Below are positions 16,572 to 31,434 of a DNA stretch of 64,000 nt, one piece after another. Origin of the DNA: a virus (taxonomy: Duplodnaviria > Caudoviricetes). Position 1 is the stretch's first letter; the number at the start of each line of letters is the position of its first letter. Under the pieces are notes generated by a model, which did not search any database, was not told the DNA's origin, and saw nothing but the letters and a program-made list of their open reading frames with translations. The stretch covers positions 1-64,000 of IMG/VR virus record IMGVR_UViG_3300032295_001098; one strand, 5' to 3'. The position numbers and the translations under genes are program-made.

Positions 16572-16906
16572 TATTCGTCCTTTGTAGGGAACTGTTGGTT
16601 GGAGAGGTATTCACGCCTTCTCTTGGTGTTTCTGTATTTTACTTTTGGTAATGTGATGTCACCAGAAGCCAGCCCGTGTAAGTAATCTTCTTGGGCGGAT
16701 TGGATATAATCGCCCCATTCAGCCTGATTAGGGCGAATACGACCCATATTACGGGGACCCATTGAGATATCGCCGTATTCTTCCTGCTCTACATCGTCTG
16801 TATATCTGCCCATAGGCTTACGAGGCTCTGAATCACCTTTTAACGATGTGTAGTTAGTTACACGCTCTTTAGCCCGAGGCGGAAGTGGTTTACGAGGGTC
16901 TTGCAT
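16571..16906 (-). CDS. hypothetical protein with C-terminal LSNQQF tag
   Basis: TATAAT-N6-ATG leaderless start. Confidence 0.55.
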   Translation of the reverse strand: MQDPRKPLPPRAKERVTNYTSLKGDSEPRKPMGRYTDDVEQEEYGDISMGPRNMGRIRPNQAEWGDYIQSAQEDYLHGLASGDITLPKVKYRNTKRRREYLSNQQFPTKDE

Positions 16907-16948
16907 TTACCAATTATAGACGGTTGTCACCGAAAAAATATGCAGATA

Positions 16949-17981: not shown

Positions 17982-18355
17982 TAGTGATCCCTCGGATGGG
18001 TTACAGAATATGTTACAGGTATTTCGGTATCTGGGTTGATGTCATGTGCCGCTACGAGTCGGTGTTGACCATCCCATATTTGTGTACCGCCACCACGTTG
18101 GGCTGAGTGGAGCCGCAGGTGTACAGGGATTTTAACCCCTTCTTTTTTAATACTGTCGTAGAGACTGTCTTTGTACCCCCCATAAGGGTGTCCCTCTTTA
18201 GATTCTCGCAATTTCCTAGCACGGACATTAGGAGACTCAGTCATAGGAAGGTAACCTGAACTAGAGGTTTCTTCATCTCCTGCGGGGTATTTCATAATCT
18301 CCCGTGCAGGGAGAAACATGGACAGTTGACCACTGAGGTGCTCTTGTGCTGGCAT
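17981..18355 (-). CDS. stand-alone ParB/Sulfiredoxin-domain protein
   Basis: LYDSIKKEGVKIPV...IWDGQHRLVAA. Confidence 0.75.
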   Translation of the reverse strand: MPAQEHLSGQLSMFLPAREIMKYPAGDEETSSSGYLPMTESPNVRARKLRESKEGHPYGGYKDSLYDSIKKEGVKIPVHLRLHSAQRGGGTQIWDGQHRLVAAHDINPDTEIPVTYSVTHPRDH

Positions 18356-18371
18356 TTATCTAGTATAGATG

Positions 18372-18650
18372 TTAATTAAACCATGAGGAATACGTTTTTT
18401 GAGTATTCCTGCGGTTAGTAAAGCCGCCCCTGATGAGTTGACTTTTACCAAAACCGTCATCTGAAGACATATGCATGTCAACCATGCCTATGGCTTGATC
18501 ACGACCATCCTGCAACAGTTCTACAGGGTGTGTAGGAGTGCCTTCACCTGTCAACATCCCTGCATACCGTGTTGCCCAGTTCCGTGCATACGACTCTCTG
18601 AGCCGTGGATAAGGATGCTTCACCGAAAATTGTTCAGGGTTTAGCGACAT
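18372..18650 (-). CDS. hypothetical protein (MSLNPEQF)
   Basis: coupled ORF with shared tag. Confidence 0.55.
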   Translation of the reverse strand: MSLNPEQFSVKHPYPRLRESYARNWATRYAGMLTGEGTPTHPVELLQDGRDQAIGMVDMHMSSDDGFGKSQLIRGGFTNRRNTQKTYSSWFN

Positions 18651-18832
18651 CAGTCGTTGTCAGCCGCACGAGGGCGCTGTCTCAACCTCTCCTCTAGATC
18701 CCTGTCATAGAGTGATGAAGTGTTAGGTGTGAACCCTGACGCTTTACGCTGTTCTTTTAACTCTGCAAGGAGTGGGTGACCCCGACCAACTTTACGGTTA
18801 AGATTATGTGCTTCGTTTTTGCCTCGTGCCAT
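18650..18832 (-). CDS. small basic hypothetical protein
   Basis: TATACT-N6-ATG leaderless start. Confidence 0.55.
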   Translation of the reverse strand: MARGKNEAHNLNRKVGRGHPLLAELKEQRKASGFTPNTSSLYDRDLEERLRQRPRAADND

Positions 18833-18849
18833 TTATCTAGTATAGATGG

Positions 18850-19155
18850 TTACTTACGTGGGGTAATACGTGGAGGAAGTGGGTCACCCGTAGATTTAGC
18901 CCAAGCGTCGCCTTCTACAGTGCGAATTGGATTATGTTGGGGCGGTGCTACATCGTCAAATTGGGTAGAAATGTGCTGGGCATGACGGTACATTCCTGTA
19001 GCGATACCTTTCCTACGGTGGTTTTCTTCAACAAAGACATTTTCAATCTGTGGGTGCCACGATAAACGACCTACAACTTTGTTATCCTCTTTCGCAATGA
19101 CTTCATGTGGCACATCTTCGTCAGACGGGCCGTACTGAAAGGTGTACTCAGGCAT
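18850..19155 (-). CDS. GNAT acetyltransferase-like protein
   Basis: VFVEENHRRKGIATGMY motif A. Confidence 0.75.
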   Translation of the reverse strand: MPEYTFQYGPSDEDVPHEVIAKEDNKVVGRLSWHPQIENVFVEENHRRKGIATGMYRHAQHISTQFDDVAPPQHNPIRTVEGDAWAKSTGDPLPPRITPRK

Positions 19156-19292
19156 ATTTCAAGTATAGGGCTATTTGGGCGAGTTGGGTGGTCGGTCGGA
19201 TTTTTGGATGGGGCTATTGAGCCGTGGAGCATTGGGTGGGGCCTGTTGTCTACCCCCCGCCTCCGCTTGCCCCCTCACTTAACCATGGGGGG

Positions 19293-19392
19293 TTATCCAC
19301 AGCCCGCTCCATGCCCTGTATGGCTCTGCTGGGTTATCCACAGGTACCCCTGTGTACAGCCTGTGGATACTGTGGAACATCTCTGTGGAACA
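19293..19392. promoter_or_regulatory. DnaA-box cluster
   Basis: perfect TTATCCACA at 19293 and 19334; inverted near-matches at 19351, 19362, 19371, 19384. Confidence 0.7.
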
Positions 19393-19399
19393 TTGGGGG

Positions 19400-19413
19400 C
19401 GAACACCCGTTTG
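19400..19413. promoter_or_regulatory. LexA (SOS)-box-like site
   Basis: CGAAC-ACCC-GTTTG versus Gram-positive CGAAC-N4-GTTCG. Confidence 0.4.
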
Positions 19414-19478
19414 TGTGTCGTTCGTCACAGTGTGACCATCGTCACATGGATTGTTCCAATCGTGTGACATTCGTCACA
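19414..19478. promoter_or_regulatory. three CRP/GlxR-type sites
   Basis: TGTGT-cgttcg-TCACA 19414-19429, TGTGA-ccatcg-TCACA 19431-19446, TGTGA-cattcg-TCACA 19463-19478. Confidence 0.7.
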
Positions 19479-19959
19479 AACCCTTGACAACTCGCAATTG
19501 GCACGAGACGCACCACAATGCGTTCTCAGAGGAGGAGGGAGGGATGTAAGGGGTCAAGGCGGGCAGTGGTACAAAGTACCCTCAGAGAGGCTGTTGTGCG
19601 TCTACGAATGGGGCTATGAGCCTTGCTGGGTAAGGGTTTGCGGGGTATGGGTAGGTTACGAAGTACTCGCCACAGCGCCCCAATTGCTATCCACTGCACC
19701 ATCGCTCCATATCGGCACCTGCACGCACCACAGAGCCTCCTAGGCACCTCTCCTGCCATCCTGCGGTATTCATTGATTAATTGAATTCTCTGCCGATTCG
19801 CACCTGCATCTCCTCCATGCCTCCCTCTATCTCCTCCTCCATCCGATGGATGGCTGGTCGTTGGGGGCGCCCAATTCCAGCCCTGTCCCCGCCGTCCCGA
19901 GGCTCCAGCCCATACGGGGCATGGCTCAGAAGAATTCAGAAGAATTGTTTAATTGGGGG

Positions 19960-19989
19960 TTGACAGATGTACTCAATCCATGATTGAAT
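19960..19989 (+). promoter_or_regulatory. candidate early promoter
   Basis: TTGACA at 19960, 18 nt, TG-a-TTGAAT (imperfect -10). Confidence 0.35.
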
Positions 19990-20113
19990 TGGGGTGGAGG
20001 GGGATGCGTCCCCCGCCTCGGTTCCTTGACAAGTGGCAGGTACGGCACGCAGGCTTCGCCCTGCGCATTTTGCGTTCCTGCCCTCAGAATCAAACATGGT
20101 TCAAAATTCCTCA

Positions 20114-20204
20114 GCGTCACGGGCTGGCTTCGGCTGGCTCGTGGCGCTCAATGAGGGCTGGAGGCATTCCCCCTGCTTCAGCCCTGATTGAGCGCACAGC
20201 GCTC
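20114..20204 (+). ncRNA. triple overlapping-hairpin element B, copy 1
   Basis: GCGTCACGGGCTGGC-TTCG-GCTGGCTCGTGGCGC; long H2; GAGCGC-ACA-GCGCTC. Confidence 0.65.
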
Positions 20205-20244
20205 CATTGGCACACTGCCAATGCAGTCTTGAGGGAGACACACC

Positions 20245-20763
20245 ATGAAAGCAACACGACAGCAACTACTCAATCTCGGAGCCAGCATCCTGAGCACTGC
20301 CTACGAAGGCGGATCTTGCGGAATGGCTTCTTGGGCAGTTTCCAACGGCACCTACAAGTGGGGCACGGAGAAGGGCGAAGGCGAATTGCACGGCAACGAG
20401 CACTACGCATCAGTCACCGTGTACGACACCGAAGCGTGCGAGTTGGTGGAAGACGAAGCCGAGTTGGCAAAGTTGACCGATGACGATGGCTTTGGTGGTT
20501 GGGGCGGGTTCTACCGCTTCGGCAAGCCACTCGTGATCAATGAGTCCATCATTGCTGACTTCATTGAGAAGATCGGCACGGGTGAGTTCAATCAGGACAG
20601 CGTTCCTGACTACGGTCAATTGTCAATCAAGCGAGTGAGTGCCCTAGCAGGGTGCTACCTCTTCGGTGAGGACGCCATTGACGAATTTGAGTCCGACAAT
20701 GACTGCATCGTGTCTGACACCATCGTGCAGTTCATCCTGCTCGGTGAGGTCACATACGGCTGA
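20245..20763 (+). CDS. hypothetical early protein
   Basis: GAGGGAG SD; ends DTIVQFILLGEVTYG. Confidence 0.7.
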   Translation: MKATRQQLLNLGASILSTAYEGGSCGMASWAVSNGTYKWGTEKGEGELHGNEHYASVTVYDTEACELVEDEAELAKLTDDDGFGGWGGFYRFGKPLVINESIIADFIEKIGTGEFNQDSVPDYGQLSIKRVSALAGCYLFGEDAIDEFESDNDCIVSDTIVQFILLGEVTYG

Positions 20764-20766
20764 TCA

Positions 20767-20828
20767 TTCCCCCAGCGCCTAGGGCGTGCCCGTTCAATCG
20801 GGACTGGGGACTACTGGCACACGCCAGT
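20767..20828 (+). ncRNA. T-loop element A, copy 1
   Basis: CCCCAG[CGCC-TAG-GGCG]TG[CCCG-TTCAAT-CGGG]A-CTGGGG-ACT + ACTGGC/GCCAGT hairpin. Confidence 0.7.
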
Positions 20829-20851
20829 TACAACTGCCTAGAGGAGGCACC

Positions 20852-21109
20852 ATGGATACCACTACAGATGCAGTGCAGAACTACATCGCCACGAGACGGC
20901 GTGCACAGGAGGACATCATCGTGGGGCTGGTCAAACGGCTCAACGATGGATTCTCAGACATGGACGGCGCCGTGAGCAATCTAGGGCTGTTTCATCAGGC
21001 ACATCACATCTTCAAGTCACAGACCAACTGGATCGGTCAACTGGGCGAAGCATTCGCCAAGTACGAGTCACTGGCTTACCTTGAGGATGACTTCACGCCG
21101 AGTGAGTGA
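20852..21109 (+). CDS. hypothetical early protein
   Basis: CCTAGAGGAGG SD before ATG 20852. Confidence 0.65.
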   Translation: MDTTTDAVQNYIATRRRAQEDIIVGLVKRLNDGFSDMDGAVSNLGLFHQAHHIFKSQTNWIGQLGEAFAKYESLAYLEDDFTPSE

Positions 21110-21113
21110 GTGT

Positions 21114-21175
21114 TTCCCCCAGCGACTAGGTCGTGGCTCTTCAATGAGCACTGGGGACTGTGAGCAACCGCTCAC
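21114..21175 (+). ncRNA. T-loop element A, copy 2
   Basis: CCCCAG[CGAC-TAG-GTCG]TG[GCTC-TTCAAT-GAGC]A-CTGGGG-ACT + GTGAGC/GCTCAC hairpin. Confidence 0.7.
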
Positions 21176-21203
21176 TACAAATACCTTGAGGGAGGTATTC
21201 ACC

Positions 21204-21755
21204 ATGAAAACATCAGACATCAAGCAGATTCTTGCCAAGGATCCAAATGCAGTGTTTCTTGTCAGTCAACGGCACCGCACTTACTACGCCACAATCGTTG
21301 AAGTGGTGGAGCGTGAGGTGCCTGTGTATGACAACTACAGGCAGACGGGTACACGCACTTCGGTGTACTTCAATGTGCTCGGCTCGGTTTACAAGCACGG
21401 CATACAAGCCGACAAGTACCGAGAAGAGCGTGTGCCTTCGTACACCTTGGAGAAGAGTCACTGGATCAAGCCACGAGACATTCAGAGTCAGTTTGACTTC
21501 GGCACTGGTGAGACACTTCAACAGTGGATCGCCAATGAAGACCGTCAAATGAAGACTGACTGGCAAGCCAGCAAAGATGAAGAAACTGCGAAGTCGGATC
21601 AAGTGAAGGCAATCGTTCGCAAGATCAGTAGCCCGAAGGTCACCGACAGAGAATGGGACGAACTGAGTGATGAACTCAGCCGACTCAGTCTTCAGACACT
21701 GAAAACACTCAATGAGAAGATCAACCCGCAGATCGGTTTCGTACGATCAGCGTGA
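21204..21755 (+). CDS. hypothetical early protein
   Basis: GAGGGAGG SD before ATG 21204. Confidence 0.65.
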   Translation: MKTSDIKQILAKDPNAVFLVSQRHRTYYATIVEVVEREVPVYDNYRQTGTRTSVYFNVLGSVYKHGIQADKYREERVPSYTLEKSHWIKPRDIQSQFDFGTGETLQQWIANEDRQMKTDWQASKDEETAKSDQVKAIVRKISSPKVTDREWDELSDELSRLSLQTLKTLNEKINPQIGFVRSA

Positions 21756-21765
21756 GGTGAGCGAC

Positions 21766-21829
21766 TCCCCCGTGCACTTTAGGTGTGGCGTTCAATCGCA
21801 ACACGGGACTAGCGACATGCGAATGTCGT
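21766..21829 (+). ncRNA. T-loop element A, copy 3
   Basis: CCCGTG[CAC-TTTAG-GTG]TG[GCG-TTCAAT-CGC]AA-CACGGG-ACT + GCGACAT-GCGA-ATGTCGT. Confidence 0.7.
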
Positions 21830-21858
21830 GAATACAAATACCTAGAGGAGGTATAGCC

Positions 21859-22545
21859 ATGAATACAGAAGCAATCTACGACAAGGTGCAGGCAATCCTT
21901 GATCGTGCCAATCATCCGAACACGCCACAAGCGGAAGCCGAGACGGCTCTCGCCATGGCACAACGGCTCATGATGAAGCACGGTCTTGAAGAGTCCGCAT
22001 TCGCCAAGGCTCAAGATCGTGACGAGAACATCGTTACCGATCAGATCCCAATCAGTGGTCAATGGCAACTTCGCCGTCTCGGTCTTGCTGGTGCAATCGC
22101 TAGTGCCAACTCTGTTGCCAACTACCGCTCCAAATCGTGGGCGGATGGCAAGAAGTCGTTGGTGTTGGTGGTGTACGGCACTGCTGGTGACATCTTCGCT
22201 GTCAAGACACTGTTCGCATCGGCAGACTTGCTCGCTTCTCGTGTGATCCCAAAGGGTGATCGGTCATTCCGCAATGCGTGGTGGCTCGGATTCTCCTCGG
22301 GAGTGCGTGAGGTGTTGCGCAAGTCCAAGAACGAAGTGATCGCAGAGCAAGGTGTGGGCACTGGGTTAGTGCTCGCTGACAAGTTCAAGCGTGCAGACGC
22401 TGAGATGCGTTCAAAAGTCAAACTCAAGTCCAGTGGGTACTACAGGTACTCATCGGGTAACGGTTACAACGCTGGTCGTTCTGCTGGTCGTTCGTTCAAC
22501 ACTGGTGGCATCGGTAACGGTGTCGCTGGAGCGCTCGGACGATGA
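21859..22545 (+). CDS. DUF2786-domain protein
   Basis: KVQAILDRANHPNTPQAEAETALAMAQRLMMKHGL. Confidence 0.8.
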   Translation: MNTEAIYDKVQAILDRANHPNTPQAEAETALAMAQRLMMKHGLEESAFAKAQDRDENIVTDQIPISGQWQLRRLGLAGAIASANSVANYRSKSWADGKKSLVLVVYGTAGDIFAVKTLFASADLLASRVIPKGDRSFRNAWWLGFSSGVREVLRKSKNEVIAEQGVGTGLVLADKFKRADAEMRSKVKLKSSGYYRYSSGNGYNAGRSAGRSFNTGGIGNGVAGALGR

Positions 22546-23018
22546 GCATCCATGCATACATGGAGGTAGTGCGGGAGGGCGTTGCAAAGCGCTCTCCCAA
22601 AATGCCCGAACATCAAGCCACGGTGTATGCGATTGAGAATGTGGTGGAGCGTCACTTGCCATCGCAAGTGATCGCTACCAAGAACGCATTCGCTTGGCTG
22701 GATCGTGTGTGTGAGACCGAAGGCTGGGACACGCCGATGGTTGATCGCATCCGATCCACCAAGTGGGCAGGTGTCGCTAGTGCCGAAGGCAATGTCATCG
22801 GCATCAGTGGCTCCAGCACGACAGCACTGGTACTGGCTCACGAACTCGCTCACATCGTGTGTGGCGAGCGTGGTCACAATGAGTGTTGGCGTAATGCGTT
22901 CGTGAACATCGTCCGAGATCACATCTCGGTACAGCATGCGTCACTCCTGCATACCTTGTACGAGCGTTTCCAACTTCAATCAGGTCAGTGGAGACTGACC
23001 GACACATCACGAGTGTGA
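22542..23018 (+). CDS. SprT-like HEXXH metallopeptidase/metallohydrolase
   Basis: VLAHELAHIV...GHNECW; coupled to the DUF2786 gene. Confidence 0.7.
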   Translation: MSIHAYMEVVREGVAKRSPKMPEHQATVYAIENVVERHLPSQVIATKNAFAWLDRVCETEGWDTPMVDRIRSTKWAGVASAEGNVIGISGSSTTALVLAHELAHIVCGERGHNECWRNAFVNIVRDHISVQHASLLHTLYERFQLQSGQWRLTDTSRV

Positions 23019-23083
23019 ACTCGTGGTGCTGTCATGGCTCATCAGCGCAAGTTGGTGAGTCATGACAGCATCATCCGATGCTG
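23004..23083 (+). ncRNA. element B, copy 2
   Basis: CATCACGAGT-GTGA-ACTCGTGGTG; 24-bp H2 with GCAA loop; CAGCATC-ATCC-GATGCTG. Confidence 0.65.
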
Positions 23084-23109
23084 AACCAAATGCCTAGAGG
23101 AGGCAAACC

Positions 23110-23433
23110 ATGAGTTATCAACTGACAGACTGGGATCTAGAACAGATCACTGACACACTGGACATGTACGAGGCGGGTTCCGTAATGGAGTACTCGGGTC
23201 GTGCAATGTACGGCGCTCAATGCCTTGGCATTGTGACACCTGATGTGGCATCAGCATTCATGATCCTCGGATCGGCACTCGCTGATTTGGGCAATGACGG
23301 TAATGCATTGACGAGGAAACTTCTTCGTGAAGTGCGCACCGACAGCATGGGTCGTGACGAGACAGTTGTCTACTTCCCATCCATCACAATGCCAGCAGGC
23401 TATGTGGAGGAGGACGAAGACAGCGACAACTAG
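23110..23433 (+). CDS. hypothetical early protein
   Basis: YSGRAMYGAQCLGIV...DSMGRDETVVYFP; strong SD. Confidence 0.7.
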   Translation: MSYQLTDWDLEQITDTLDMYEAGSVMEYSGRAMYGAQCLGIVTPDVASAFMILGSALADLGNDGNALTRKLLREVRTDSMGRDETVVYFPSITMPAGYVEEDEDSDN

Positions 23434-23447
23434 TCGTAAGTGATAGT

Positions 23448-23530
23448 CGGGAGCATCACGGCGTAAGCCGTGGTGCCCTCACAGTGCATCGGCGTTGTGT
23501 CGGTGCATTGTGAGGGCATACAATTGCCCG
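23448..23530 (+). ncRNA. element B, copy 3
   Basis: GCATCACGGC-GTAA-GCCGTGGTGC; long H2; GGGCA-TACAAT-TGCCC. Confidence 0.7.
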
Positions 23531-23556
23531 TTCAATTAACGCCTAGAGGAGGCACC

Positions 23557-23814
23557 ATGGATGCAAGTATTCACAAAGTAACTGGGCTACGGATTGAGCG
23601 ATCCGATGACTCACGACTCAACACAATTGATCTCGTGATTCAGTACGAGGACTTAGCCTTCAGCCGTCCCCAGTGGGTTGACTACGACAAGGAGTCATTC
23701 GGTTACGCAAAATTGGAGACCACGATCACTCTCTTCATCAGTGATGAGGTGAACATGGACACAGTGTTGTGGCAAGCAATTGCAGATGTCACTTCACAAC
23801 TCTCCAAAGTGTGA
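23557..23814 (+). CDS. hypothetical early protein
   Basis: CCTAGAGGAGG SD before ATG 23557. Confidence 0.65.
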   Translation: MDASIHKVTGLRIERSDDSRLNTIDLVIQYEDLAFSRPQWVDYDKESFGYAKLETTITLFISDEVNMDTVLWQAIADVTSQLSKV

Positions 23815-23825
23815 GTAATGAGCAA

Positions 23826-23904
23826 TGGGCAGTCATGGCGTGAGCCATGGCGTGCTCGGAGTGCACTGATCCCCCATCGGTGCATTCCGAGGACGCAAGT
23901 CCAT
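23826..23904 (+). ncRNA. element B, copy 4
   Basis: GTCATGGC-GTGA-GCCATGGC; long H2; GGAC-GCAA-GTCC. Confidence 0.7.
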
Positions 23905-23943
23905 AGTTAGAAAAACAAAACAGAATCAGAGGAGGTTCTTACC

Positions 23944-24669
23944 ATGGGTGCAATAACACCAAAACAGCAAGCGTTCATTCGCACAATGCTTCTTGAGCGT
24001 GCTTCAACACTCGGTCTTGATGAGGCTGGCGTTGATCAGTACATCATTGATCAGAAGGTGAATGAGTTGTCAAATAAGTCAGCGTCCACCGTCATTGATG
24101 CAATCAAGAAGATTGAGATCAAGCGTGTGGGCACCGATCACTTGCCGAAGGCAGAGCGCAACATCGTCAACAAGTATGCGAACCCGTGCACATTGTGCGG
24201 GCATCCTGTGCCTGTCGGTGCTGGTCATGCGTTACTGATCAACAGCAAGTGGCAGACATACCACGCTCTCGGACAGTGCTCAACAGAGCCTGCCGTACAG
24301 CCTGAGCGTGTGAGCAATGAATTGTTCGGGACATTGCCTGATGGCTTCTATGCAATGAGGTCAACGGGCACGAACGATCTCGTGTTCTATGCGGTGAAGA
24401 CAAATAAGGGTTTTCATAACCCTCAGTTCAAGGGTCACCGCTCCATCTACTTAGTTGTGGGTGGTCACGATGACGAGCGACTCACTGGTGAGCGTGGCGT
24501 GAACGCTGTGAAGCGTCTCGTAACACTCACTGATGAACAGCGTGTGCAGGCACGAGCACTGTACGGTCAAGAGATCGGACGGTGTGGTGTGTGCGGACGG
24601 CACTTAACTGACGAAGTCACACGCAAGCGTGGCATCGGCAATGACTGCGCAAGCAGGTTGGGCATCTAG
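23944..24669 (+). CDS. DUF6011-type zinc-finger protein
   Basis: C-terminal CGVCGRHLTDEVTRKRGIGNDCA; second CxxC..H..C motif. Confidence 0.7.
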   Translation: MGAITPKQQAFIRTMLLERASTLGLDEAGVDQYIIDQKVNELSNKSASTVIDAIKKIEIKRVGTDHLPKAERNIVNKYANPCTLCGHPVPVGAGHALLINSKWQTYHALGQCSTEPAVQPERVSNELFGTLPDGFYAMRSTGTNDLVFYAVKTNKGFHNPQFKGHRSIYLVVGGHDDERLTGERGVNAVKRLVTLTDEQRVQARALYGQEIGRCGVCGRHLTDEVTRKRGIGNDCASRLGI

Positions 24670-24674
24670 CCCGA

Positions 24675-24748
24675 GGGCGTCATGGCGTGAGCCATGGCGT
24701 GCTCACAGCACATGGGTACGCTCATGTGTTGTGAGGACGCAAGTCCAT
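24675..24748 (+). ncRNA. element B, copy 5
   Basis: H1 and H3 identical to copy 4; H2 differs in sequence but still pairs. Confidence 0.7.
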
Positions 24749-24773
24749 AACACTTACCTGAGGAGGTAAATAT

Positions 24774-26312
24774 ATGACCATGAATACACAACTAGGAGAA
24801 CTAAGCGCATTGCTTAGTCGTGTTGAGCGTGTAGCGCCAGCCATCACGGCTGACCCTGCGCTCCATGCGTTAAGTAGTGCTCACGATGGCGAAGTCGCTG
24901 TAGACCTCGCCCAGCCTCTCTTCCCATTCCAGCGTGCTGGTGTGGCGTATGCTCTCAAGCAACGCCGTGCCATCATCGGAGATGAGATGGGGCTGGGTAA
25001 GACTCCACAAGGCATCGCAGTAGCAGTGCACGCACACAAGGAGGGACACAAAGTCCTCGTTGTAGTGCCACCATCGCTCCGCATCAACTGGCAACGCTCC
25101 TTCGCACTGTTCGCACCGTGGCTGACAACAGCCATTGTGTCGGGCAACAAAGTGACGGCTCTTCCCAAAGCAGATGTGCTCATTATTGGTGACAGCATCA
25201 TTGACACTTGGTCAGTGAGGCTTGTCAATGCCAAGTTCGGCGCACTGATCGTGGACGAGGCGCATCGTGCGAAGAATGCAAAGTCAGGACGCACCAAGGG
25301 CATCGCACATATCGCTAAGTCAATCCCGACTGAGGGTTATGTGACGCTCTTGAGCGGAACGATCATCGTGAACCGTCCGAACGAATTGGTCTCGCCACTG
25401 TCAATCATTGGCAGACTTGACCGAGTGTTCGGTGGTAAGTCAGCGTTCCTGTTTCGTTACTGTGACCCGATCCACAATGGTTGGGGTTATGTGTACAACG
25501 GAGCAACCAACACCACTGAGTTGAACGACAAATTGCGTGGCACCTGCTATGTGAGGCGTAACAAGTCAGATGTGTTGAAGGAACTACCTGCCAAGCGCCG
25601 TGCTCAGGTTGCTACCGAGATCAGCAACACCGATCTCGTGGCATATCGCTCTGCTGAAGAGAACTTCCGTGACTTCGTTATCGCCAACGGCGGTGTTGAA
25701 GCATGGCAGAGAGCCTCTAAGGCTGAAGTGATCACACGCCTGAATGCATTGCGCAGGTTGCTCGGTATCGCAAAGATCCCGTATGTGGTGGAGCATGTAG
25801 AAGAACTTGTCGCACAAGGCGAGAAGGTCATCGTGTTCGCACATCACAAAGAAGTCATCGCACAACTAAGCAGTGCTCTGCATGAGCATGGCGTAGTCAA
25901 GGTGGCTGGCGGACTCAGCGATACACAGAAGCAGGAAGCAGTTGACGCATTCCAAACTGGTAGCGCCAAGGTGTTCATCGGACAATTTCAATCCGCTGGT
26001 GTTGGTCTCACATTGACCGCATCATCGCATGTCGTGTTCGCTGAATTGCCATGGGAGCCAGCCTCCGCAGTGCAAGCCGAAGACCGTGCGCATCGCATCG
26101 GTCAAGACAACGCTGTGGTCGCATGGTGGCTACTGGCTGTAGACAACACAAGCGAGATCCCAACAGTGGACGATCGCATGTGGGCGCTACTGAATGCCAA
26201 ACACGAGACAGTTTCGGCTGTCTTGACGGGGCACGGTGAGGACATGGGCGCCGAGGGTGCGACAAGCATCACTCAATCGCTCATTGAAGGCATCATCGGC
26301 AACGGAGGTTGA
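24774..26312 (+). CDS. SNF2/HARP-like DEAH helicase
   Basis: GDEMGLGKT, DEAH, SGT, QAEDRAHRIGQ. Confidence 0.9.
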   Translation: MTMNTQLGELSALLSRVERVAPAITADPALHALSSAHDGEVAVDLAQPLFPFQRAGVAYALKQRRAIIGDEMGLGKTPQGIAVAVHAHKEGHKVLVVVPPSLRINWQRSFALFAPWLTTAIVSGNKVTALPKADVLIIGDSIIDTWSVRLVNAKFGALIVDEAHRAKNAKSGRTKGIAHIAKSIPTEGYVTLLSGTIIVNRPNELVSPLSIIGRLDRVFGGKSAFLFRYCDPIHNGWGYVYNGATNTTELNDKLRGTCYVRRNKSDVLKELPAKRRAQVATEISNTDLVAYRSAEENFRDFVIANGGVEAWQRASKAEVITRLNALRRLLGIAKIPYVVEHVEELVAQGEKVIVFAHHKEVIAQLSSALHEHGVVKVAGGLSDTQKQEAVDAFQTGSAKVFIGQFQSAGVGLTLTASSHVVFAELPWEPASAVQAEDRAHRIGQDNAVVAWWLLAVDNTSEIPTVDDRMWALLNAKHETVSAVLTGHGEDMGAEGATSITQSLIEGIIGNGG

Positions 26313-26391
26313 TCGTGGGCGCTCGGCGCCTCATGGTCGGCGCCCGTAGCGACAGACGATGTGTTCTTGTCCTCACGGGAACCATCACAGT

Positions 26392-26472
26392 GCATCACGG
26401 GCGCAAGCCCGTGGTGTTCTGACAGTACATCGGCACACCGCTGGTGTACCGTCAGAACATCACCCGATGTTC
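26392..26472 (+). ncRNA. element B, copy 6
   Basis: GCATCACGGGC-GCAA-GCCCGTGGTGT; long H2; GAACATC-ACCC-GATGTTC. Confidence 0.7.
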
Positions 26473-26495
26473 AAACAACGCCTAGAGGAGGCACC

Positions 26496-26711
26496 ATGTA
26501 CAACTTAAATGTAAATCTCAGCGGAGGCATTGATCGCCGTGGATCCGAACTGGACATCCTGTACCAGTTAGTTGAAGAGGGCATGGAAGCCATCTACAAC
26601 CGACTTGGTGACGATGGCATTTATCCATGGGGAACTGTGGAGCAATATGTCGCTGTACAGCAGAAGATTCAAAATGCTCTCGGAGAGATCTGTTCTAAGA
26701 ACGGTTTCTAG
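26496..26711 (+). CDS. hypothetical early protein
   Basis: CCTAGAGGAGG SD before ATG 26496. Confidence 0.6.
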   Translation: MYNLNVNLSGGIDRRGSELDILYQLVEEGMEAIYNRLGDDGIYPWGTVEQYVAVQQKIQNALGEICSKNGF

Positions 26712-26715
26712 AGAG

Positions 26716-26776
26716 TTCCCCTAGCGCTTTAGGCGTGGCGTTCAATCGCAACTAGGGACTGTGAACACCCGTTCAC
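26716..26776 (+). ncRNA. T-loop element A, copy 4
   Basis: CCCTAG[CGC-TTTAG-GCG]TG[GCG-TTCAAT-CGC]AA-CTAGGG-ACT + GTGAAC/GTTCAC hairpin. Confidence 0.7.
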
Positions 26777-26805
26777 TATAAGTAAACAAAGCCTGAGGAG
26801 GCACA

Positions 26806-27042
26806 ATGAAAGTAAGCCATGCAATTAAATTATTGAGTGAGATCAATCCTGACGAAGAGATATGTATCTCTTGGTGGGAAGCAAATCTGTTTACTGACGA
26901 ACATGATGAAACATTGTCGGCAGACTCAGAGGGATGGCTAAGGGCAGTTGCCGATTTTACTTCTGCGGATGGTTATGCAACCATCAACAGTCAAATGTGG
27001 GATTTTCTTTGGTATTCAATTACAGAACAAGGAGAGTTCTAA
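26806..27042 (+). CDS. hypothetical early protein
   Basis: CCTGAGGAGG SD. Confidence 0.6.
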   Translation: MKVSHAIKLLSEINPDEEICISWWEANLFTDEHDETLSADSEGWLRAVADFTSADGYATINSQMWDFLWYSITEQGEF

Positions 27043-27344
27043 TGACAATCGGAACACCAATAGGTGCGTGGGCAATCATTCAATGGAAGGACACGCAAGA
27101 TGAAAGCGAGGTGTATTTCTCGTTTGGCACATGGAATGAGAACGAGTGGGGCGGTGAGTTTGACTCACTGGGCAACAAAGACGATGAGGTTTTCTTTTAC
27201 TGCGAAGGCGGAGAAGAAGAACTCAAGTCGCTCGTAGGCAACAACGGCGAAGACTTCAATGTCTTGTCGTATGACATTGACTACAGCGTTCCACTCGTGC
27301 TCGCTGACATGGACGAGCCAGTATTCAAGGAGGAAGCACAATGA
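27042..27344 (+). CDS. acidic hypothetical protein
   Basis: AAGGAG SD, TAATG coupling. Confidence 0.6.
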   Translation: MTIGTPIGAWAIIQWKDTQDESEVYFSFGTWNENEWGGEFDSLGNKDDEVFFYCEGGEEELKSLVGNNGEDFNVLSYDIDYSVPLVLADMDEPVFKEEAQ

Positions 27345-27604
27345 TCGGTACAAAGAGTTGGCTACTGACAGGTTGTTATGTAGACGGCACACACGGCGTC
27401 TACAGCGCCATGGAAGCGTGCAGGATCGCACGAGAACTCGGATGGGATGGGCAACAGCCCACAGACATTGAGGACTCGTGGTACCAAGAAGAGGTAGCCA
27501 CGGAATGGCTGAACAAGGTGATCGCTGACGATGGTCACTCGTTCGGTTGGCATGACGCCGAGTACTTCTACATGCCACAAGCATGGTGGGAGGATGTCGC
27601 TTGA
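27341..27604 (+). CDS. acidic hypothetical protein
   Basis: AGGAGG SD, ATGA overlap. Confidence 0.6.
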   Translation: MIGTKSWLLTGCYVDGTHGVYSAMEACRIARELGWDGQQPTDIEDSWYQEEVATEWLNKVIADDGHSFGWHDAEYFYMPQAWWEDVA

Positions 27605-27605
27605 T

Positions 27606-27687
27606 CGGGAGCATCACGGGCTACGGCTCGTGGTGTCCTCACAGCCCATAAATCATATTTGTGGGTTGTGAGGGCACTCAGTGCCCG
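27606..27687 (+). ncRNA. element B, copy 7
   Basis: GCATCACGGGC-TACG-GCTCGTGGTGT; long H2; GGGCAC-TCA-GTGCCC. Confidence 0.7.
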
Positions 27688-27723
27688 ATAAATTAATTAA
27701 TCCCTATGACCTGAGGAGGTCTT

Positions 27724-28083
27724 ATGTTAGAGCCAGTAATCACGATGACCGTTGAGCAATGGGAAGAGCAATACGAACCCTTTGTCAATCACCTAGATGC
27801 AGATGCATCATGGGCAACCGATGACGCCAACGGCATCATGTTTGAAACATACGGTGCCGAAGTTGATTATGTGTATGCCCGACCACTCAACCACACATGG
27901 ACATATGTGGATGGCGAAGAGGGCACATACATTCTTGCTGGACGCCATCTCGTAAATCGCATCGGTTACTTCGTAACTGCGGTGCCATGGAAGGATGACT
28001 TCAACACCAAGTATGAAATTCAAGTAAGTGCCAATGATGATTATTACCAAACAGTGTTAGACCTTGAAGGAGGCAACAAATGA
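27724..28083 (+). CDS. hypothetical phage protein
   Basis: MFETYGAE...WTYVDG...GRHLVNRIGYFVT; strong SD. Confidence 0.7.
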   Translation: MLEPVITMTVEQWEEQYEPFVNHLDADASWATDDANGIMFETYGAEVDYVYARPLNHTWTYVDGEEGTYILAGRHLVNRIGYFVTAVPWKDDFNTKYEIQVSANDDYYQTVLDLEGGNK

Positions 28084-28289
28084 AAACAATCAATGTGAAA
28101 GCAGGAGACGAGGTAGAAATTCTTGTGCAGATCTATCAGAACGAGACCTTTGAATACACAGGAATCGTTTCAAATATCAGCGACACCGAGTTGACATTGT
28201 GGACTGAAGACAGCCCACACTTTGACACTGGTGTTGAGCGTGAGATTGACATCCCGCTCAACAAGATCCTTGAAGTGGACATCTTTTAG
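28080..28289 (+). CDS. small SH3/Sm-like hypothetical protein
   Basis: beta-rich 69 aa; SD. Confidence 0.5.
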   Translation: MKTINVKAGDEVEILVQIYQNETFEYTGIVSNISDTELTLWTEDSPHFDTGVEREIDIPLNKILEVDIF

Positions 28290-28341
28290 TAAGAAGCAAC
28301 CCTGTAACACCTATCAACAACAATGATCTGAGGAGGTCATC

Positions 28342-28587
28342 ATGAAAAAATGGAATGTAAGTATCTCGCTCCAAACGGGCGTGTATCTAGAAGAGGTCAG
28401 TGCAAAGGATCCATTGGCGTTATACGAGGGAGACCTCAGTTACAACGCTGTGGTCACAGCATTGATTGATCAATTGCAATCAGGTCAAGCAACACTTGAC
28501 TGGGTTGTGGAGGAAGTGGAGACACTGGACGGCGTCACTGTATGTCGTGACGATGAAGACCGTGTATGGCTGGGAGATGCAGTATGA
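28342..28587 (+). CDS. hypothetical protein
   Basis: CTGAGGAGGT SD. Confidence 0.55.
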   Translation: MKKWNVSISLQTGVYLEEVSAKDPLALYEGDLSYNAVVTALIDQLQSGQATLDWVVEEVETLDGVTVCRDDEDRVWLGDAV

Positions 28588-28790
28588 GTAAGGGCTGGGT
28601 CACACAGATCGTCATGCTTCTCGGTGTTACAGAGATGGAAGCCGAGCAGATTGACAAGTACGCCCTTGAAGAAGGGCTGTACAACGAGATAGACAGCAGT
28701 GAAGCCACTGTGGCAGAACTTAAAGGGTTCTACGCAATGGTTAGCGATGAGTACCGAAGAGCAAACAACATTGAAACAAAGAGCCTTTAG
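28584..28790 (+). CDS. hypothetical protein
   Basis: ATGA overlap. Confidence 0.5.
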   Translation: MSKGWVTQIVMLLGVTEMEAEQIDKYALEEGLYNEIDSSEATVAELKGFYAMVSDEYRRANNIETKSL

Positions 28791-28801
28791 GAGGGCACAA
28801 C

Positions 28802-29098
28802 ATGGGAACAATTAATGCACTAGGCATGGCGGAAGCCGTGGAAGACGGAATGATTGAACTGCGTCAGGCGCTCGCATGGCACCTGCAAAGCAATCACTAT
28901 CCAGCAGTACCACTGAACATGGTTGATCCATGTGTTATTGCAATTCAGTTAGTCACCGAAGGTGAGCACGACAGCAATGTCTCGCTTCCCGATGGGATCT
29001 TGTGGCGAGGTCAGCCAGTTGCTCCAGCGTGGGCAGTTGTAGACGCACACCACCTTGAATCATTCATTGACATCAGCGAAGAGGAATGGGGTTTCTAA
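28802..29098 (+). CDS. hypothetical phage protein
   Basis: WHLQSNHYPAVP...VDAHHLESF; AGGAGG SD. Confidence 0.65.
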   Translation: MGTINALGMAEAVEDGMIELRQALAWHLQSNHYPAVPLNMVDPCVIAIQLVTEGEHDSNVSLPDGILWRGQPVAPAWAVVDAHHLESFIDISEEEWGF

Positions 29099-29649
29099 TG
29101 AGCGAAGACACAGAGAACAAGTGCTGTGAGTGCGAGGAGATCGTGGACACCGAAGGTGACTACGGCTGGAGCACCGTCAAGGAGGAATACCTCTGCTGGG
29201 GTTGCTACGAGTCAGATCAGAACCACGCTTCAACTCTCCATGTCATTGACGATGGTGCAGTACTCAAGTATTACATCGGAGATCATGTACGCATGGACGA
29301 GTACGGCGATGACATGTTTCGTACCAACATCACGGTCAACCGTGAGTATGTGCACTCCAGTGCATGGCGTGGTTACTTCAACACCACGATTGAAGGCTGG
29401 ACACAGGTCATGGACGGTTGGACTACGGGTGGCTGGGGTGACCCAATCGCTCAACGCAAGCAGACATTCAATGAATGGGCTGAGTCACTAATGACAGGTG
29501 AACTGGTACCACCAGTCCCTGTAGCCATCGTGGCTGACCCAACGAGCAATGTGTTCAGCATGGGCATCTCGGTGCTCACACCTGAACCAAACAGGCTCAA
29601 GGAGTGGATCAACGGAGACTTTGATGCACTCTACGGAGCGCTGTCATGA
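29098..29649 (+). CDS. zinc-finger hypothetical protein
   Basis: CCECE...CWGC. Confidence 0.6.
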   Translation: MSEDTENKCCECEEIVDTEGDYGWSTVKEEYLCWGCYESDQNHASTLHVIDDGAVLKYYIGDHVRMDEYGDDMFRTNITVNREYVHSSAWRGYFNTTIEGWTQVMDGWTTGGWGDPIAQRKQTFNEWAESLMTGELVPPVPVAIVADPTSNVFSMGISVLTPEPNRLKEWINGDFDALYGALS

Positions 29650-29930
29650 GGGACTACACAGAGTTCAATCGCAGAGTGACTACGGGGTTCTTCGTATACC
29701 TCGCAGTCCTTGTGTCAGCGTTTGTAGTGTTCTTGTTCCGAGACTATGCACAACGCATGGACTTGTATGTCTGCAACACAAAGCAACACATCGTGACATA
29801 CGGGGAGAGCCTGTGGGAGATCGCTCAGAGCAACTGCTCAGGCAATATCCGATCAGCCGTAGATGACCTCGTAGACACCTACGGGTCAACCATCCAAAAC
29901 GGGCAGGTCATTGACCTCCCCACAAAATAG
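29646..29930 (+). CDS. membrane-anchored LysM protein (YneA/ChiZ/DivS-like architecture)
   Basis: N-terminal TM then HIVTYGESLWEIA...IQNGQVIDLP LysM. Confidence 0.7.
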   Translation: MRDYTEFNRRVTTGFFVYLAVLVSAFVVFLFRDYAQRMDLYVCNTKQHIVTYGESLWEIAQSNCSGNIRSAVDDLVDTYGSTIQNGQVIDLPTK

Positions 29931-29939
29931 AAATAGAAG

Positions 29940-29968
29940 TTGCAATTCCCAATCCACGGAGGTAGTTT
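29940..29968 (+). promoter_or_regulatory. sigmaA-type promoter
   Basis: TTGCAA-N17-TAGTTT upstream of the DUF932 gene. Confidence 0.55.
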
Positions 29969-30019
29969 TATCTCAGTGGTACAACAAATCAAATAAGTCA
30001 AACAACAAGGAGAAATATC

Positions 30020-31045
30020 ATGTCAAGAGAAACCAGCCAGTGGCTCAACCAGAATGTTCTGGTGGGCTTTACATCCAAGCGTGGAAACGCATGGCACTAC
30101 AAGGCAACTGAACAAGGAACCGAGCCAAACCATTATGAGCAGGCGATCCCTGTTGAAGATGTGCGTAGGCGTTTGTTCAACTGGCAGGCTGTTGAAGCCC
30201 CAGTGTTCGTTCAAGTTCCTGACAACGCTGGAGTCAATCGTTACATTGAGCAGAGTGACCGCAAGGCAATTGTTCGTAACGACACTTATGAGACTCTCGG
30301 TCTCTTCAAGGACTCGTATCAGATACACCAGTACAACGAGTGGTTGATCGGAACCATCAGCAACATCATTGATGACAGCAACTTGCAGATCGGATCTGCG
30401 GGCTTGCTCCGCAACGGTGGAGTTGCTTGGGTCAGCATTGAGATGCCTGAGACAGTTCAGACCAAGGCGGGATTTGAGTTCCGTCCACACCTACTCGGAA
30501 CCACGAGCCACAACGGCACACTTGCCACCACCTTCAAGCGCACAGTCACCGCCGTGGTGTGTGACAACACACTTGCTGGAGCACTTGGTGAGAGCGGATC
30601 AGAGTTCAAGACCCGTCACAGCAAGTTCAGCAACGGACGCATCCAAGACATTCGTGATGCTCTCGGAATCATCCACACCATGGCAGACGAAGTCAGCCTT
30701 GAGATTGAGCGCTTGTCATCATTGACAGTCACCCAGTCTGAGTGGGACGCCATCGTTGACCGCTTGGTACCAGTTGGTGTCGGTGAAGAGGCTCGCCCTC
30801 AAGCCGTGAGCCGTGCTCAGAACAAGCAGGAGTTGATCCGTCACCTCTACAAGAATGACCCACGCTGTGCTCCATGGGTTGGTACACAACTCGGAGTGTT
30901 ACAGGCATTCAACACATGGACTCACCACTTCAGTGGCAAGGACGAGTCCCGTGTAGAGCGCAACGCAATGAATGCACTCAACGGCAAGACCGATGAGTTT
31001 GACCGTCAGGTGCTTCGCATCATGAATGATGTGGTACTCGTATGA
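30020..31045 (+). CDS. DUF932-family phage protein
   Basis: SAGLLRNGG..W, TTSHNG, VVCDNTL, KTRHS motifs. Confidence 0.8.
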   Translation: MSRETSQWLNQNVLVGFTSKRGNAWHYKATEQGTEPNHYEQAIPVEDVRRRLFNWQAVEAPVFVQVPDNAGVNRYIEQSDRKAIVRNDTYETLGLFKDSYQIHQYNEWLIGTISNIIDDSNLQIGSAGLLRNGGVAWVSIEMPETVQTKAGFEFRPHLLGTTSHNGTLATTFKRTVTAVVCDNTLAGALGESGSEFKTRHSKFSNGRIQDIRDALGIIHTMADEVSLEIERLSSLTVTQSEWDAIVDRLVPVGVGEEARPQAVSRAQNKQELIRHLYKNDPRCAPWVGTQLGVLQAFNTWTHHFSGKDESRVERNAMNALNGKTDEFDRQVLRIMNDVVLV

Positions 31046-31434
31046 CCGAAGCGCTGGTGGGGGAGCAATCCCCCACCTATGCTCGGGACACCGAATACAC
31101 AGCCTTACCATTCCCCGAAGTGATGGCGGAATGGAGATCGCAAGCCAAGTGCAAAGATGAAGACGGATCACTGTGGTTTGCCAGCAAGCCGAAAGGCATT
31201 AACAACTCATCCATCAAAGGAAGAATTGTTAACAGCCGTAGGAAGCGGGCACAGCGTATTTGTAAAGTGTGTCCTGTTCAGTATGAATGCCTGCGCTACG
31301 CCGTCTTGAATGACTTCAGGGATGGCATATGGGCTGGTTATGAAATGGATGACCTCACACATACAGACCGTCAAGTACTTCGTCAGCGTATTAAACGAGC
31401 AGAACGAAAGTTAAATAAGACTGTCAACAAGTGA
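31042..31434 (+). CDS. whiB: WhiB-family transcription factor
   Basis: W...AKC...CKVCPVQYECL...GIWAG. Confidence 0.85.
   Translation: MTEALVGEQSPTYARDTEYTALPFPEVMAEWRSQAKCKDEDGSLWFASKPKGINNSSIKGRIVNSRRKRAQRICKVCPVQYECLRYAVLNDFRDGIWAGYEMDDLTHTDRQVLRQRIKRAERKLNKTVNK

Follow-up and report, generated by a model that had tools for sequence, protein, structure and literature searches.

A repeated intercistronic RNA element with a T-loop-like hexaloop in an uncultured tailed phage and its freshwater relatives

The locus described here raises the question of why a phage should repeat the same small folded sequence in front of several of its genes. The locus lies in IMG/VR virus record IMGVR_UViG_3300032295_001098 (Duplodnaviria; Caudoviricetes), which we analyzed over its positions 1–64,000 (64,000 nucleotides [nt] in total, hereafter called the window). 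A sequence-only reading of this window had noticed four copies of a short T-loop element between genes, and interpreted them as a tRNA mimic of approximately 45 nt without an anticodon, used as a processing signal, a nuclease block, or a decoy against tRNA-targeting defenses. To explain the repeats, it is necessary to establish whether the element is an RNA or a DNA signal, whether it belongs with the tRNAs, and what it may do for the genes around it. The results reported below indicate that the element is a new RNA family among the repeated structured intercistronic cassettes of phage early operons.

Structure and conservation of the element

All four copies were found on the plus strand, starting at 20767, 21114, 21766, and 26716, as the sequence-only reading had reported, and each of them begins 6–13 nt past the stop codon of the preceding open reading frame (ORF) and has a strong ribosome-binding site downstream. 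The pattern TTCAAT-N8-GGGACT had four matches in the window, compared with a mean of 0.01 in 100 shuffled sequences, none of which reached four, and the whole 94,977-bp record contained the same four forward matches and no reverse match. A covariance model search, which had been suggested as a check, was run with filters off and found only these four copies in the window (58.9–76.8 bits), the next-best match scoring 9.1 bits (E = 2.2); it found no copy in the remaining 31 kb of the genome. The parts of each copy are listed in Table 1.

RNAfold predicted one common structure in all four copies, namely, a three-way junction followed by a hairpin. The energies of copies 1–4 were −30.4, −28.1, −23.1, and −21.7 kcal/mol, with z-scores of −3.2, −3.6, −1.8, and −1.7, respectively. 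The core of the element is 46 nt long: a 6-bp outer stem directly abuts a 4-bp hairpin with a 3-nt loop (hairpin 1, 0 nt between them), which is followed by an unpaired UG, a 3–4-bp hairpin with the loop UUCAAU (the T-like hairpin), one or two A residues, and the closing strand of the outer stem. On the 3′ side of the outer stem, a single-stranded ACU leads into a separate hairpin of 6–7 bp.

Relatives of the element were collected by scanning IMG/VR with a pattern taken from the window, which yielded 47 loci; the 37 distinct matches consisted of 23 with the whole architecture and 14 chance matches without the fold. The four window copies and 22 copies from related contigs (23 distinct rows) were aligned with MAFFT. 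In this alignment, 317 of 317 pair cells were paired, nine of the 14 pairs had changed on both sides, and the covariation score was 0.51, a value reached by none of 500 shuffles (score after shuffling, 0.136). When the alignment was slid as a control, pairing dropped to 22–50% in every case. The compensatory stem changes claimed from the four copies are therefore real, and extend widely among the relatives. The covariance model was built from this alignment and detected many extra copies, overlooked by the pattern, in sequence flanking the related loci. The larger set comprised 150 matches, 63 of them distinct, from the window and related freshwater phage contigs. Among these 63 copies, 99.7% of 863 cells were paired and the covariation score was 0.582, compared with 0.145 after shuffling (0 of 500 shuffles reached it), although this alignment was fitted to the covariance model and its values lean towards that model. 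Approximately 30 of the cells were G·U pairs, mostly at the closing pair of hairpin 1. Because the stems covary freely and contain G·U pairs, each of which would read as an A·C mismatch in the opposite strand, the element is a structured single-stranded RNA on the sense strand. The same observations speak against a DNA promoter or operator, which the earlier reading had named among the findings that would undo its interpretation.

The hexaloop of the T-like hairpin might have appeared invariant only through the first search pattern, so two further scans left the loop free. In IMG/VR, the loop-free scan detected 70 loci on 47 contigs, with 39 distinct cores, of which 34 had TTCAAT and five had TTCGAT. 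In metagenome contigs, at least 121 loci and at least 99 distinct matches were detected; among the matches listed, 36 of 99 had both stems paired (27 with TTCAAT and nine with TTCGAT), and the other 63 distinct matches were unstructured GC-rich chance matches. The T-loop pentad UUCRA that the earlier reading had recognized was thus present in 39 of 39 IMG/VR cores and, among the matches listed, in 36 of 36 structured metagenome cores. Because it was kept in both loop-free scans, the hexaloop can be written UUCRAU, i.e., the tRNA T-loop pentad plus one base. A fixed hexaloop was found in every structured copy, as expected from the claim of an “invariant TTCAAT,” and its family form must be widened to TTCRAT (TTCGAT in five of the 39 cores). 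The “(TT)TAG” loop proposed for hairpin 1 was not conserved in homologues, which share only a U-N-R triloop, with an invariant G next to it: UAG, UUG, or UCG occurs under a C-G closing pair, and UUA, UCA, or UGA under U·G. The third base of the triloop was G with the C-G closing pair (36 copies) and mostly A with U·G (21 A, five G).

Several other positions were near-invariant. These were the junction UG (47 of 47, although not required by the first pattern), the basal pair of hairpin 1 (C-G), the A on the 3′ side of the T-like arm, the three basal pairs of the outer stem (all C-G), and an unpaired C before this stem, facing an A after it. In the tail of the distinct copies, A was found in 62 of 63, C in 62 of 62, and U in 56 of 63. 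This conservation is partly built in, because two of the three search patterns required these bases; a few of the covariance model matches outside the patterns ended in ACA, GCU, or ACG instead. At the T-like loop, the closing pair varied (A-U in 23, G-C in 23, and C-G in 17 of the 63 distinct copies).

Downstream of the core, the second hairpin, A-rich spacer, and strong ribosome-binding site agree with the earlier description. Among 49 distinct modules with enough flanking sequence, the hairpin begins 0–1 nt past the tail in 48, and one of these hairpins has only 4 bp. In 38 of the 49 modules, the ribosome-binding site is of the GGAG type and lies at +27 to +35, with the start codon at +38 to +49; most of the other 11 come from a more distantly related lineage, whose binding site differs, or are flanked by little sequence. 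A small palindrome, NNCC(U)GAGGAGGNN, encloses the ribosome-binding sites of the block, and its outer bases pair in 48 of 56 distinct contexts (mean 16.5 and maximum 27 in 2,000 shuffles). These outer bases covary (GA/TC, TA/TA, TG/CA, GT/AC, and CT/AG), and the palindromes include those at 20835–20849, 21838–21854, 23091–23105, 24754–24767, and 27708–27721 of the window, together with others in five related records. The A-rich box on the 3′ side of the hairpin (TACAAC, TACAAA, or TATAAG) is without the final T of a −10 hexamer. The second hairpin was also considered as a preQ1-type hairpin with an A-rich tail, an idea that was dropped because its loops are only 4 nt.

Table 1. Positions of the element copies, their downstream modules, and the second intercistronic family in the window
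Feature	Coordinates	Strand	Details
Plus-strand gene block	19105–31434	+	Only long plus-strand block; holds all four copies
Copy 1 core	20767–20812	+	76.8 bits; outer stem 20770–20775/20804–20809; hairpin 1 20776–20786; UG 20787–20788; T-like hairpin 20789–20802, loop 20793–20798; A 20803; ACU 20810–20812
Copy 1 second hairpin	20813–20828	+	6 bp, 4-nt loop; directly 3′ of ACU
Copy 1 ribosome-binding-site hairpin	20835–20854	+	NNCC..GAGGAGGNN; ATG 20852 opens 85-aa ORF
Copy 2 core	21114–21159	+	71.8 bits; T-like loop 21140–21145; ACU 21157–21159
Copy 2 second hairpin	21160–21175	+	6 bp, 4-nt loop
Copy 2 ribosome-binding-site palindrome	21181–21206	+	ATG 21204 opens 183-aa ORF
Copy 3 core	21766–21810	+	58.9 bits; 3-bp T-like arm, AA; loop 21791–21796; ACU 21808–21810
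Copy 3 second hairpin	21811–21829	+	7 bp, 4-nt loop; begins 1 nt past ACU
Copy 3 ribosome-binding-site hairpin	21838–21861	+	ATG 21859 opens 228-aa DUF2786 protein
Copy 4 core	26716–26760	+	66 bits; 3-bp T-like arm, AA; loop 26741–26746; ACU 26758–26760
Copy 4 second hairpin	26761–26776	+	6 bp, 4-nt loop
Copy 4 ribosome-binding-site context	26790–26808	+	ATG 26806 opens 78-aa ORF
Second family	23019–23112	+
Second family	23434–23556	+
Second family	23815–23946	+
Second family	24670–24776	+
Second family	26313–26500	+
Second family	27605–27726	+

Gene exchange, operon, and host

We analyzed the position of the element in six related records, which contained 2, 2, 4, 7, 8, and 6 copies; within each record, all copies share one strand and span a few kb. 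A gene-family map of the six records showed that the element precedes single genes in permuted order (e.g., families 35, 36, 22, 24, 0, 37, and 7), and that the single genes behind it are gained and lost between related phages (19.1–27 kb of the window compared with five related records). The site between gene families 13 and 9 was kept in four records. Contigs of related strains, when placed on the window, join across copies, from 21165 to 21845 and from 21181 to 23106 or 23116, and a join from 26710 to 26780 removes copy 4; these joints were taken at 90% likeness, some of them are short-sided, and they are used here only as agreement with the gene-family map. Because the cassette of approximately 100 nt is repeated, we infer that it acts as a site of homologous exchange.

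Besides small ORFs that match no known family, the plus-strand block that holds the copies encodes a DUF2786 protein, an SNF2 helicase, a DUF932 protein, and a WhiB-like protein, and this gene content suggests that its genes are probably early genes. The genome as a whole is that of a tailed phage with a contractile tail, with structural genes for the sheath, tube, baseplate J, a gp25-like protein, portal, capsid, and terminase, and replication genes for a family A DNA polymerase, DnaB, primase, a RecA-like protein, and two SNF2 helicases. It also encodes two WhiB-like genes, a helix-turn-helix protein, and many small proteins of unknown function. Pfam scans of all greedily called ORFs of ≥ 70 amino acids (aa) detected no RNA polymerase, sigma factor, RNase, or RNA ligase family. 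The polymerase and sigma factor families were also absent from the PHROGs scans, which, like the Pfam scans, covered ORFs of < 70 aa only in the plus-strand block, and no integrase was detected in the Pfam or PHROGs scans of the phage ORFs. An N4-like hairpin promoter or a promoter for a phage RNA polymerase was dropped as a candidate because no polymerase or sigma factor family was found, and an integron attC-like site was dropped because there was no integrase and its putative core was not conserved.

A simple consensus scan of 18500–32000 detected six sigma-70-like promoter sites and 12 terminator-like sites, none of them on a copy, and the idea of a host-type promoter or terminator inside the element was dropped for lack of a consensus match. 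A 281-nt untranslated stretch at 19964–20247 on the plus strand lies before the first gene that precedes a copy. It contains a TTGACA near 20040, a short GC hairpin with a T-rich tail at 20048–20065, and a long imperfect hairpin at 20136–20203, and may be the promoter and leader of the operon. A second TTGACA box is located near 19484.

Other long gaps of the same block contain a second intercistronic family (Table 1), likewise a junction, composed of an outer stem, a 6–7-bp tetraloop hairpin, and a perfect 19–21-bp hairpin (z-scores of −4 to −8). The A-rich spacer and the ribosome-binding-site hairpin behind it are the same as those of the first family. Helices of 19–21 bp have the length that RNase III cuts, and at least one of the two families resembles a processing site of the classical kind. 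Because both families fill its long gaps, the operon is punctuated throughout by structured RNA. In one case, a second-family structure covers the first 85 nt of an ORF called from GTG 23470, so this ORF probably starts at the ATG near 23557.

The WhiB-like genes indicate an actinobacterial host. When 185,579 species genomes were searched with a strict pattern, a single match was obtained (TTCGAT loop, 51 bits). It lies among small ORFs at 3000–3046 on the minus strand of a 48-kb contig from a metagenome-assembled Acidimicrobiia genome; the contig may represent a prophage or a binned phage contig, or may hint at the host. A blastn search of 7.9 kb against cultured phages gave no match, the 91-nt cassette gave one 23-nt match to a Microbacterium phage at E = 10, i.e., a chance match, and the DNA polymerase showed at most ~35% identity to the polymerases of Streptomyces phages. 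Because none of these three comparisons gave a close match, no cultured relative carries the element. Parts of the region were contained in 20 public runs, mostly DNA metagenomes from lakes and fresh water.

The remaining observations concern the rest of the genome. A 22-nt repeat occurs three times (77–100% identical; 16901–16922, 18350–18371, and 18827–18848) in short gaps of the neighboring minus-strand block, of which it may be a promoter or translation signal. A 478-aa protein at 34666–36099 (minus strand) matched the PHROG for queuine tRNA-ribosyltransferase (E = 1.3e-33) without matching any Pfam family at E ≤ 0.001. It is a candidate DpdA-like DNA-modifying enzyme, and a link to the RNA element was not found. 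A SpoVS-family protein is encoded at 41143–41430 on the minus strand (Pfam E = 5.5e-20); nucleic-acid binding is predicted for this family. Direct repeats were found in large structural genes of the minus strand, at 1093–1302, 3084–3906, 5321–5424, and 9485–10044. The genes that bear them include one for a 1,104-aa tail-fiber-like protein with a C1q domain and one for a 708-aa protein with GT-rich periodic repeats of 9–21 nt.

Likeness to tRNA and proposed role in mRNA

We compared the element with tRNA in detail. ARAGORN called no tRNA gene in the window or in the rest of the genome, as had been expected of a tRNA finder. No family of Rfam 15 matched the element at the gathering threshold, and a search of 19900–28400 at E ≤ 10 gave no tRNA and ten sub-threshold matches, none of which was on a copy. 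The element has three helices, and forms neither a cloverleaf nor an anticodon arm. Its T-like arm has 3–4 bp and a 6-nt loop, whereas a tRNA T-arm has 5 bp, a 7-nt loop, and a G53-C61 closing pair; its outer stem has 6 bp and ends in ACU, whereas a tRNA has a 7-bp acceptor stem and CCA. One or two bases (A or AA) part the T-like stem from the outer stem and none parts the outer stem from hairpin 1, whereas the acceptor and T stems of tRNA meet with zero length between them, and these junction lengths predict a stacking unlike that of tRNA. The putative elbow partner of the T-like loop is the U-N-R loop followed by the invariant G, on an arm of equal length. As a claim of membership, “tRNA mimic” therefore fails on tRNA finders, stem lengths, tail, junction topology, and partner loop. 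Nothing was found in favor of a decoy against tRNA-targeting defenses, because there is no anticodon loop and every copy lies in cis before a gene. Among the functions suggested earlier, a processing signal or nuclease block still offers the best kind of explanation.

To account for the observed fold, conservation, position, and gene shuffling, we propose, with a probability of roughly 0.4, that the element is a cis-acting punctuation cassette of polycistronic mRNA, combining a cut with end protection. The mRNA would be produced by the host RNA polymerase from the small, probably early genes of a freshwater actinobacterial myovirus, and each module would consist, in order, of a stop codon, 3–13 nt, the three-way junction, ACU, the hairpin, an A/C-rich spacer, the ribosome-binding-site hairpin, and a start codon. 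A host endoribonuclease would cut the sole exposed linker, between the A and the C of ACU. The favored candidate is actinobacterial RNase E, which would act on single-stranded RNA 5′ of the cytidine; alternatively, RNase Z could break the same bond after the discriminator-like A. The GC-rich junction would then stay on the upstream mRNA as a 3′ cap against 3′-to-5′ exonucleases, and its T-loop-like hexaloop probably docks on the neighboring U-N-R loop, a putative contact. Watson–Crick kissing between the loops was also considered, and was dropped because they are not complementary. The downstream mRNA would start with two or three free bases and a hairpin, and would thus be shielded from 5′-end-dependent decay by RNase J or RNase E; the hairpin end may also keep the ribosome-binding site free of upstream context.

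Processing with end protection is preferred because it uses all four features of the module: the fixed-loop junction, the ACU, the immediate hairpin, and the free, strong ribosome-binding site. There are precedents for its parts. The early mRNAs of T7 and SP82 are cut at repeated intercistronic structures, a 5′ hairpin stabilizes bacterial mRNA only if very few bases precede it, and the parts of the synthetic insulator RiboJ come in the same order, namely, a cleaving three-way junction, a hairpin, and a ribosome-binding site. In mycobacteria, RNase E targets cytidines in single-stranded RNA, cutting on their 5′ side at RN↓CNU, and does so with greater frequency in 5′ untranslated and intergenic regions (PMC10641625).

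However, the following points weigh against this proposal. First, the public RNA-labeled runs that contain the region are assembled contigs, and are unable to show RNA ends; the three RNA-labeled runs and one DNA run that we examined consist of contigs without starts, ends, or strand. The one true metatranscriptome covers six of 30 bins, and one of its contigs stops at 26755, 3 nt before the proposed cut, but a single end is no evidence. Second, a plain cap needs no invariant UUCRAU, UG junction, or conserved A, so these bases point to a particular tertiary fold or partner, which the model leaves unnamed. Third, the linker fits RN↓CNU only at the C, the +3 base being A or G and not U. Additionally, ribosomes terminating 6–13 nt upstream would transiently unwind the outer stem, and the second hairpin is missing in one of the 49 modules. 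Finally, the host clues are only the WhiB genes and one Acidimicrobiia contig, and the preferences of a mycobacterial enzyme may not transfer.

An unlikely but credible alternative is that the element is a translation enhancer, in which elbow-like docked loops ~30 nt upstream of the ribosome-binding site would raise initiation without any cleavage, by touching the ribosome or by insulating the binding site. The fixed distance of +27 to +35 to the ribosome-binding site in 38 of 49 modules is consistent with this idea, as is the UUCRAU loop beside the U-N-R loop and the invariant G, because arms of equal length (4 bp and 3–4 bp) could allow the loops to meet. It also has a direct experimental precedent: in PMC9142559, tRNAs or the tRNA-like yjdF aptamer, placed in cis before a ribosome-binding site, increased in vitro translation 2- to 6.3-fold, and the gain depended on two elbow guanines. 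However, the element is without the anticodon arm and the L shape of the constructs described there, and the docking of its loops is only putative. Enhancement also leaves unexplained the near-universal second hairpin, the conserved ACU, and the long perfect hairpins in the other gaps of the operon.

It is rather unlikely that the junction is a minimal tRNA-elbow mimic that would recruit RNase P and/or RNase Z, cut the operon into single-gene messages, and release a stable mini-RNA; if true, a 46-nt module without an anticodon arm would let a phage punctuate its messages as mitochondria do with tRNAs. We consider it doubtful that the element is a true substrate of tRNA processing, as the sequence-only reading supposed. 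In that case, RNase P would cleave on the 5′ side of the outer stem and RNase Z just past the A of ACU, and the freed mini-RNA of ~45 nt would be stable and may act in trans as a decoy or sponge, the operon being punctuated as by mitochondrial tRNAs. The UUCRA pentad in all structured copies, the tail of a discriminator-like A followed by C, the conserved unpaired C opposite the A at the stem base, the arrays of up to eight copies per record, which are like tRNA arrays, and the phage's lack of its own tRNA genes are all consistent with this explanation, and plant mitochondrial t-elements are described, in PMC1920247, as tRNA-like end-forming signals in mRNAs. However, ARAGORN and the Rfam tRNA model do not recognize the element, even at E ≤ 10; its outer and T-like stems together have 9–10 bp, compared with 12 in tRNA; and the predicted non-tRNA stacking, the variable T-like closing pair, and the absence of CCA also argue against it. 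Furthermore, cleavage on the 5′ side would strip the upstream mRNA of any protective structure at its 3′ end, and there is no anticodon loop to act as a decoy for anticodon nucleases.

A binding site for a protein or RNA polymerase, serving translational repression or timing, or antitermination like lambda nut or HK022 put, is improbable. Invariant loops and junction bases with variable stems are typical of hairpins recognized by a protein or polymerase, and the two-hairpin layout of the element resembles that of put RNA. The probable early operon location and the two WhiB-like proteins, the helix-turn-helix protein, and the many small proteins encoded by the phage also point in this direction. 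In contrast, there are 2–8 copies per record, which track single-gene cassettes, whereas an antitermination signal normally occurs once per operon; moreover, no RNA-binding protein family was detected in the Pfam or PHROGs scans, and no terminator-like sites followed the copies in the consensus scan of 18500–32000.

A bacterial counterpart of the exoribonuclease-resistant RNAs (xrRNAs), in which the T-loop structure would stall RNase J arriving from upstream and protect the downstream cistron, is very improbable. The element precedes each cistron that would be protected, and the class 3 xrRNAs of plant viruses, as presented in PMC12397905, are similar in size and have a core T-loop that docks two guanines like a tRNA elbow. 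Nevertheless, the required ring-closing pseudoknot was not evident in a covariation scan of the 49 core columns, which did not search for downstream pairing; the secondary structure is unlike all three xrRNA classes; and no bacterial xrRNA precedent was found in the literature.

We give little credence to a new small self-cleaving ribozyme that would cut at or near ACU. The ~46-nt three-way junction with ~20 near-invariant bases beside a conserved single-stranded linker, and the architecture shared with the synthetic ribozyme-plus-hairpin insulator, would suit such an activity, but no Rfam ribozyme family matched 19900–28400 at E ≤ 10, and the junction strands of 0, 2, and 1–2 nt are too short for a hammerhead core. 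The hammerhead and other known ribozymes were dropped for these short strands and the absence of an Rfam match. A DNA-level signal (promoter, operator, or structured recombination site) is equally remote: gene cassettes are exchanged at the repeats, with a precedent in the T4-type PeSL (PMC2839356 and PMC4122927), but short stems that covary freely around fixed loops are not how a double-stranded DNA site evolves, the G·U pairs are valid on one strand only, the consensus scan of 18500–32000 placed no sigma-70-like match on a copy, the Pfam and PHROGs scans detected no phage RNA polymerase, sigma factor, or integrase, and the copies all lie in gene orientation at a fixed distance from the ribosome-binding site.

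Comparison with known systems and significance

The element shares features with several known systems. Like the RNase III sites of T7, T3, and SP82, it consists of repeated structures between probably early genes of a polycistronic phage mRNA, which would be cut there, leaving protective ends; RNase III sites contain about two turns of double-stranded RNA, however, and the helices of the element (≤ 6–7 bp) are far too short, so the second family, with its 19–21 bp, fits better. With the tRNA T-arm and elbow and with plant mitochondrial t-elements (PMC1920247), it shares the UUCRA pentad, a GC-rich terminal stem followed by an unpaired A, and a location between cistrons; it differs from tRNA in having three helices rather than four, a 6-bp terminal stem, ACU instead of CCA, and another predicted stacking. 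The T4-type PeSL (PMC2839356 and PMC4122927) are likewise repeated intergenic cassettes that flank variable single genes and serve as exchange points in a plastic early region. However, a PeSL is a promoter plus a terminator that acts at the DNA level, whereas the element has no promoter or terminator match and its RNA pairing is conserved. The yjdF leader and grafted tRNAs (PMC9142559) are also cis-acting folded domains with T-loop-type and partner loops before a ribosome-binding site; the yjdF aptamer is a ligand-responsive four-way junction homologous to tRNA-Lys, whereas the element is a smaller three-way junction present in many copies before unrelated genes. The class 3 xrRNAs (PMC12397905) and the element are both compact folds of ~45 nt, the xrRNA core being a T-loop with docked purines, but the element has no identified pseudoknot or ring, a different secondary structure, and a bacterial host. 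No description of the motif was found in the accessible literature, which leaves room for a listing in the supplements of RNA-motif surveys.

The family is widespread in uncultured freshwater actinobacterial phages, with 47 IMG/VR contigs detected in one scan, and the cassette explains the swapping of single unknown genes among these phages. If the proposed model holds, the element would show how phages of high-GC Gram-positive hosts cut and stabilize polycistronic early messages, and that a T-loop can organize a very small domain embedded in mRNA. It would also represent a natural, portable cassette of ~100 nt, consisting of a fold, a cut site, a hairpin, and a ribosome-binding site, that insulates the expression of a gene from its neighbors, and such a cassette would be useful for operon design in actinobacteria.

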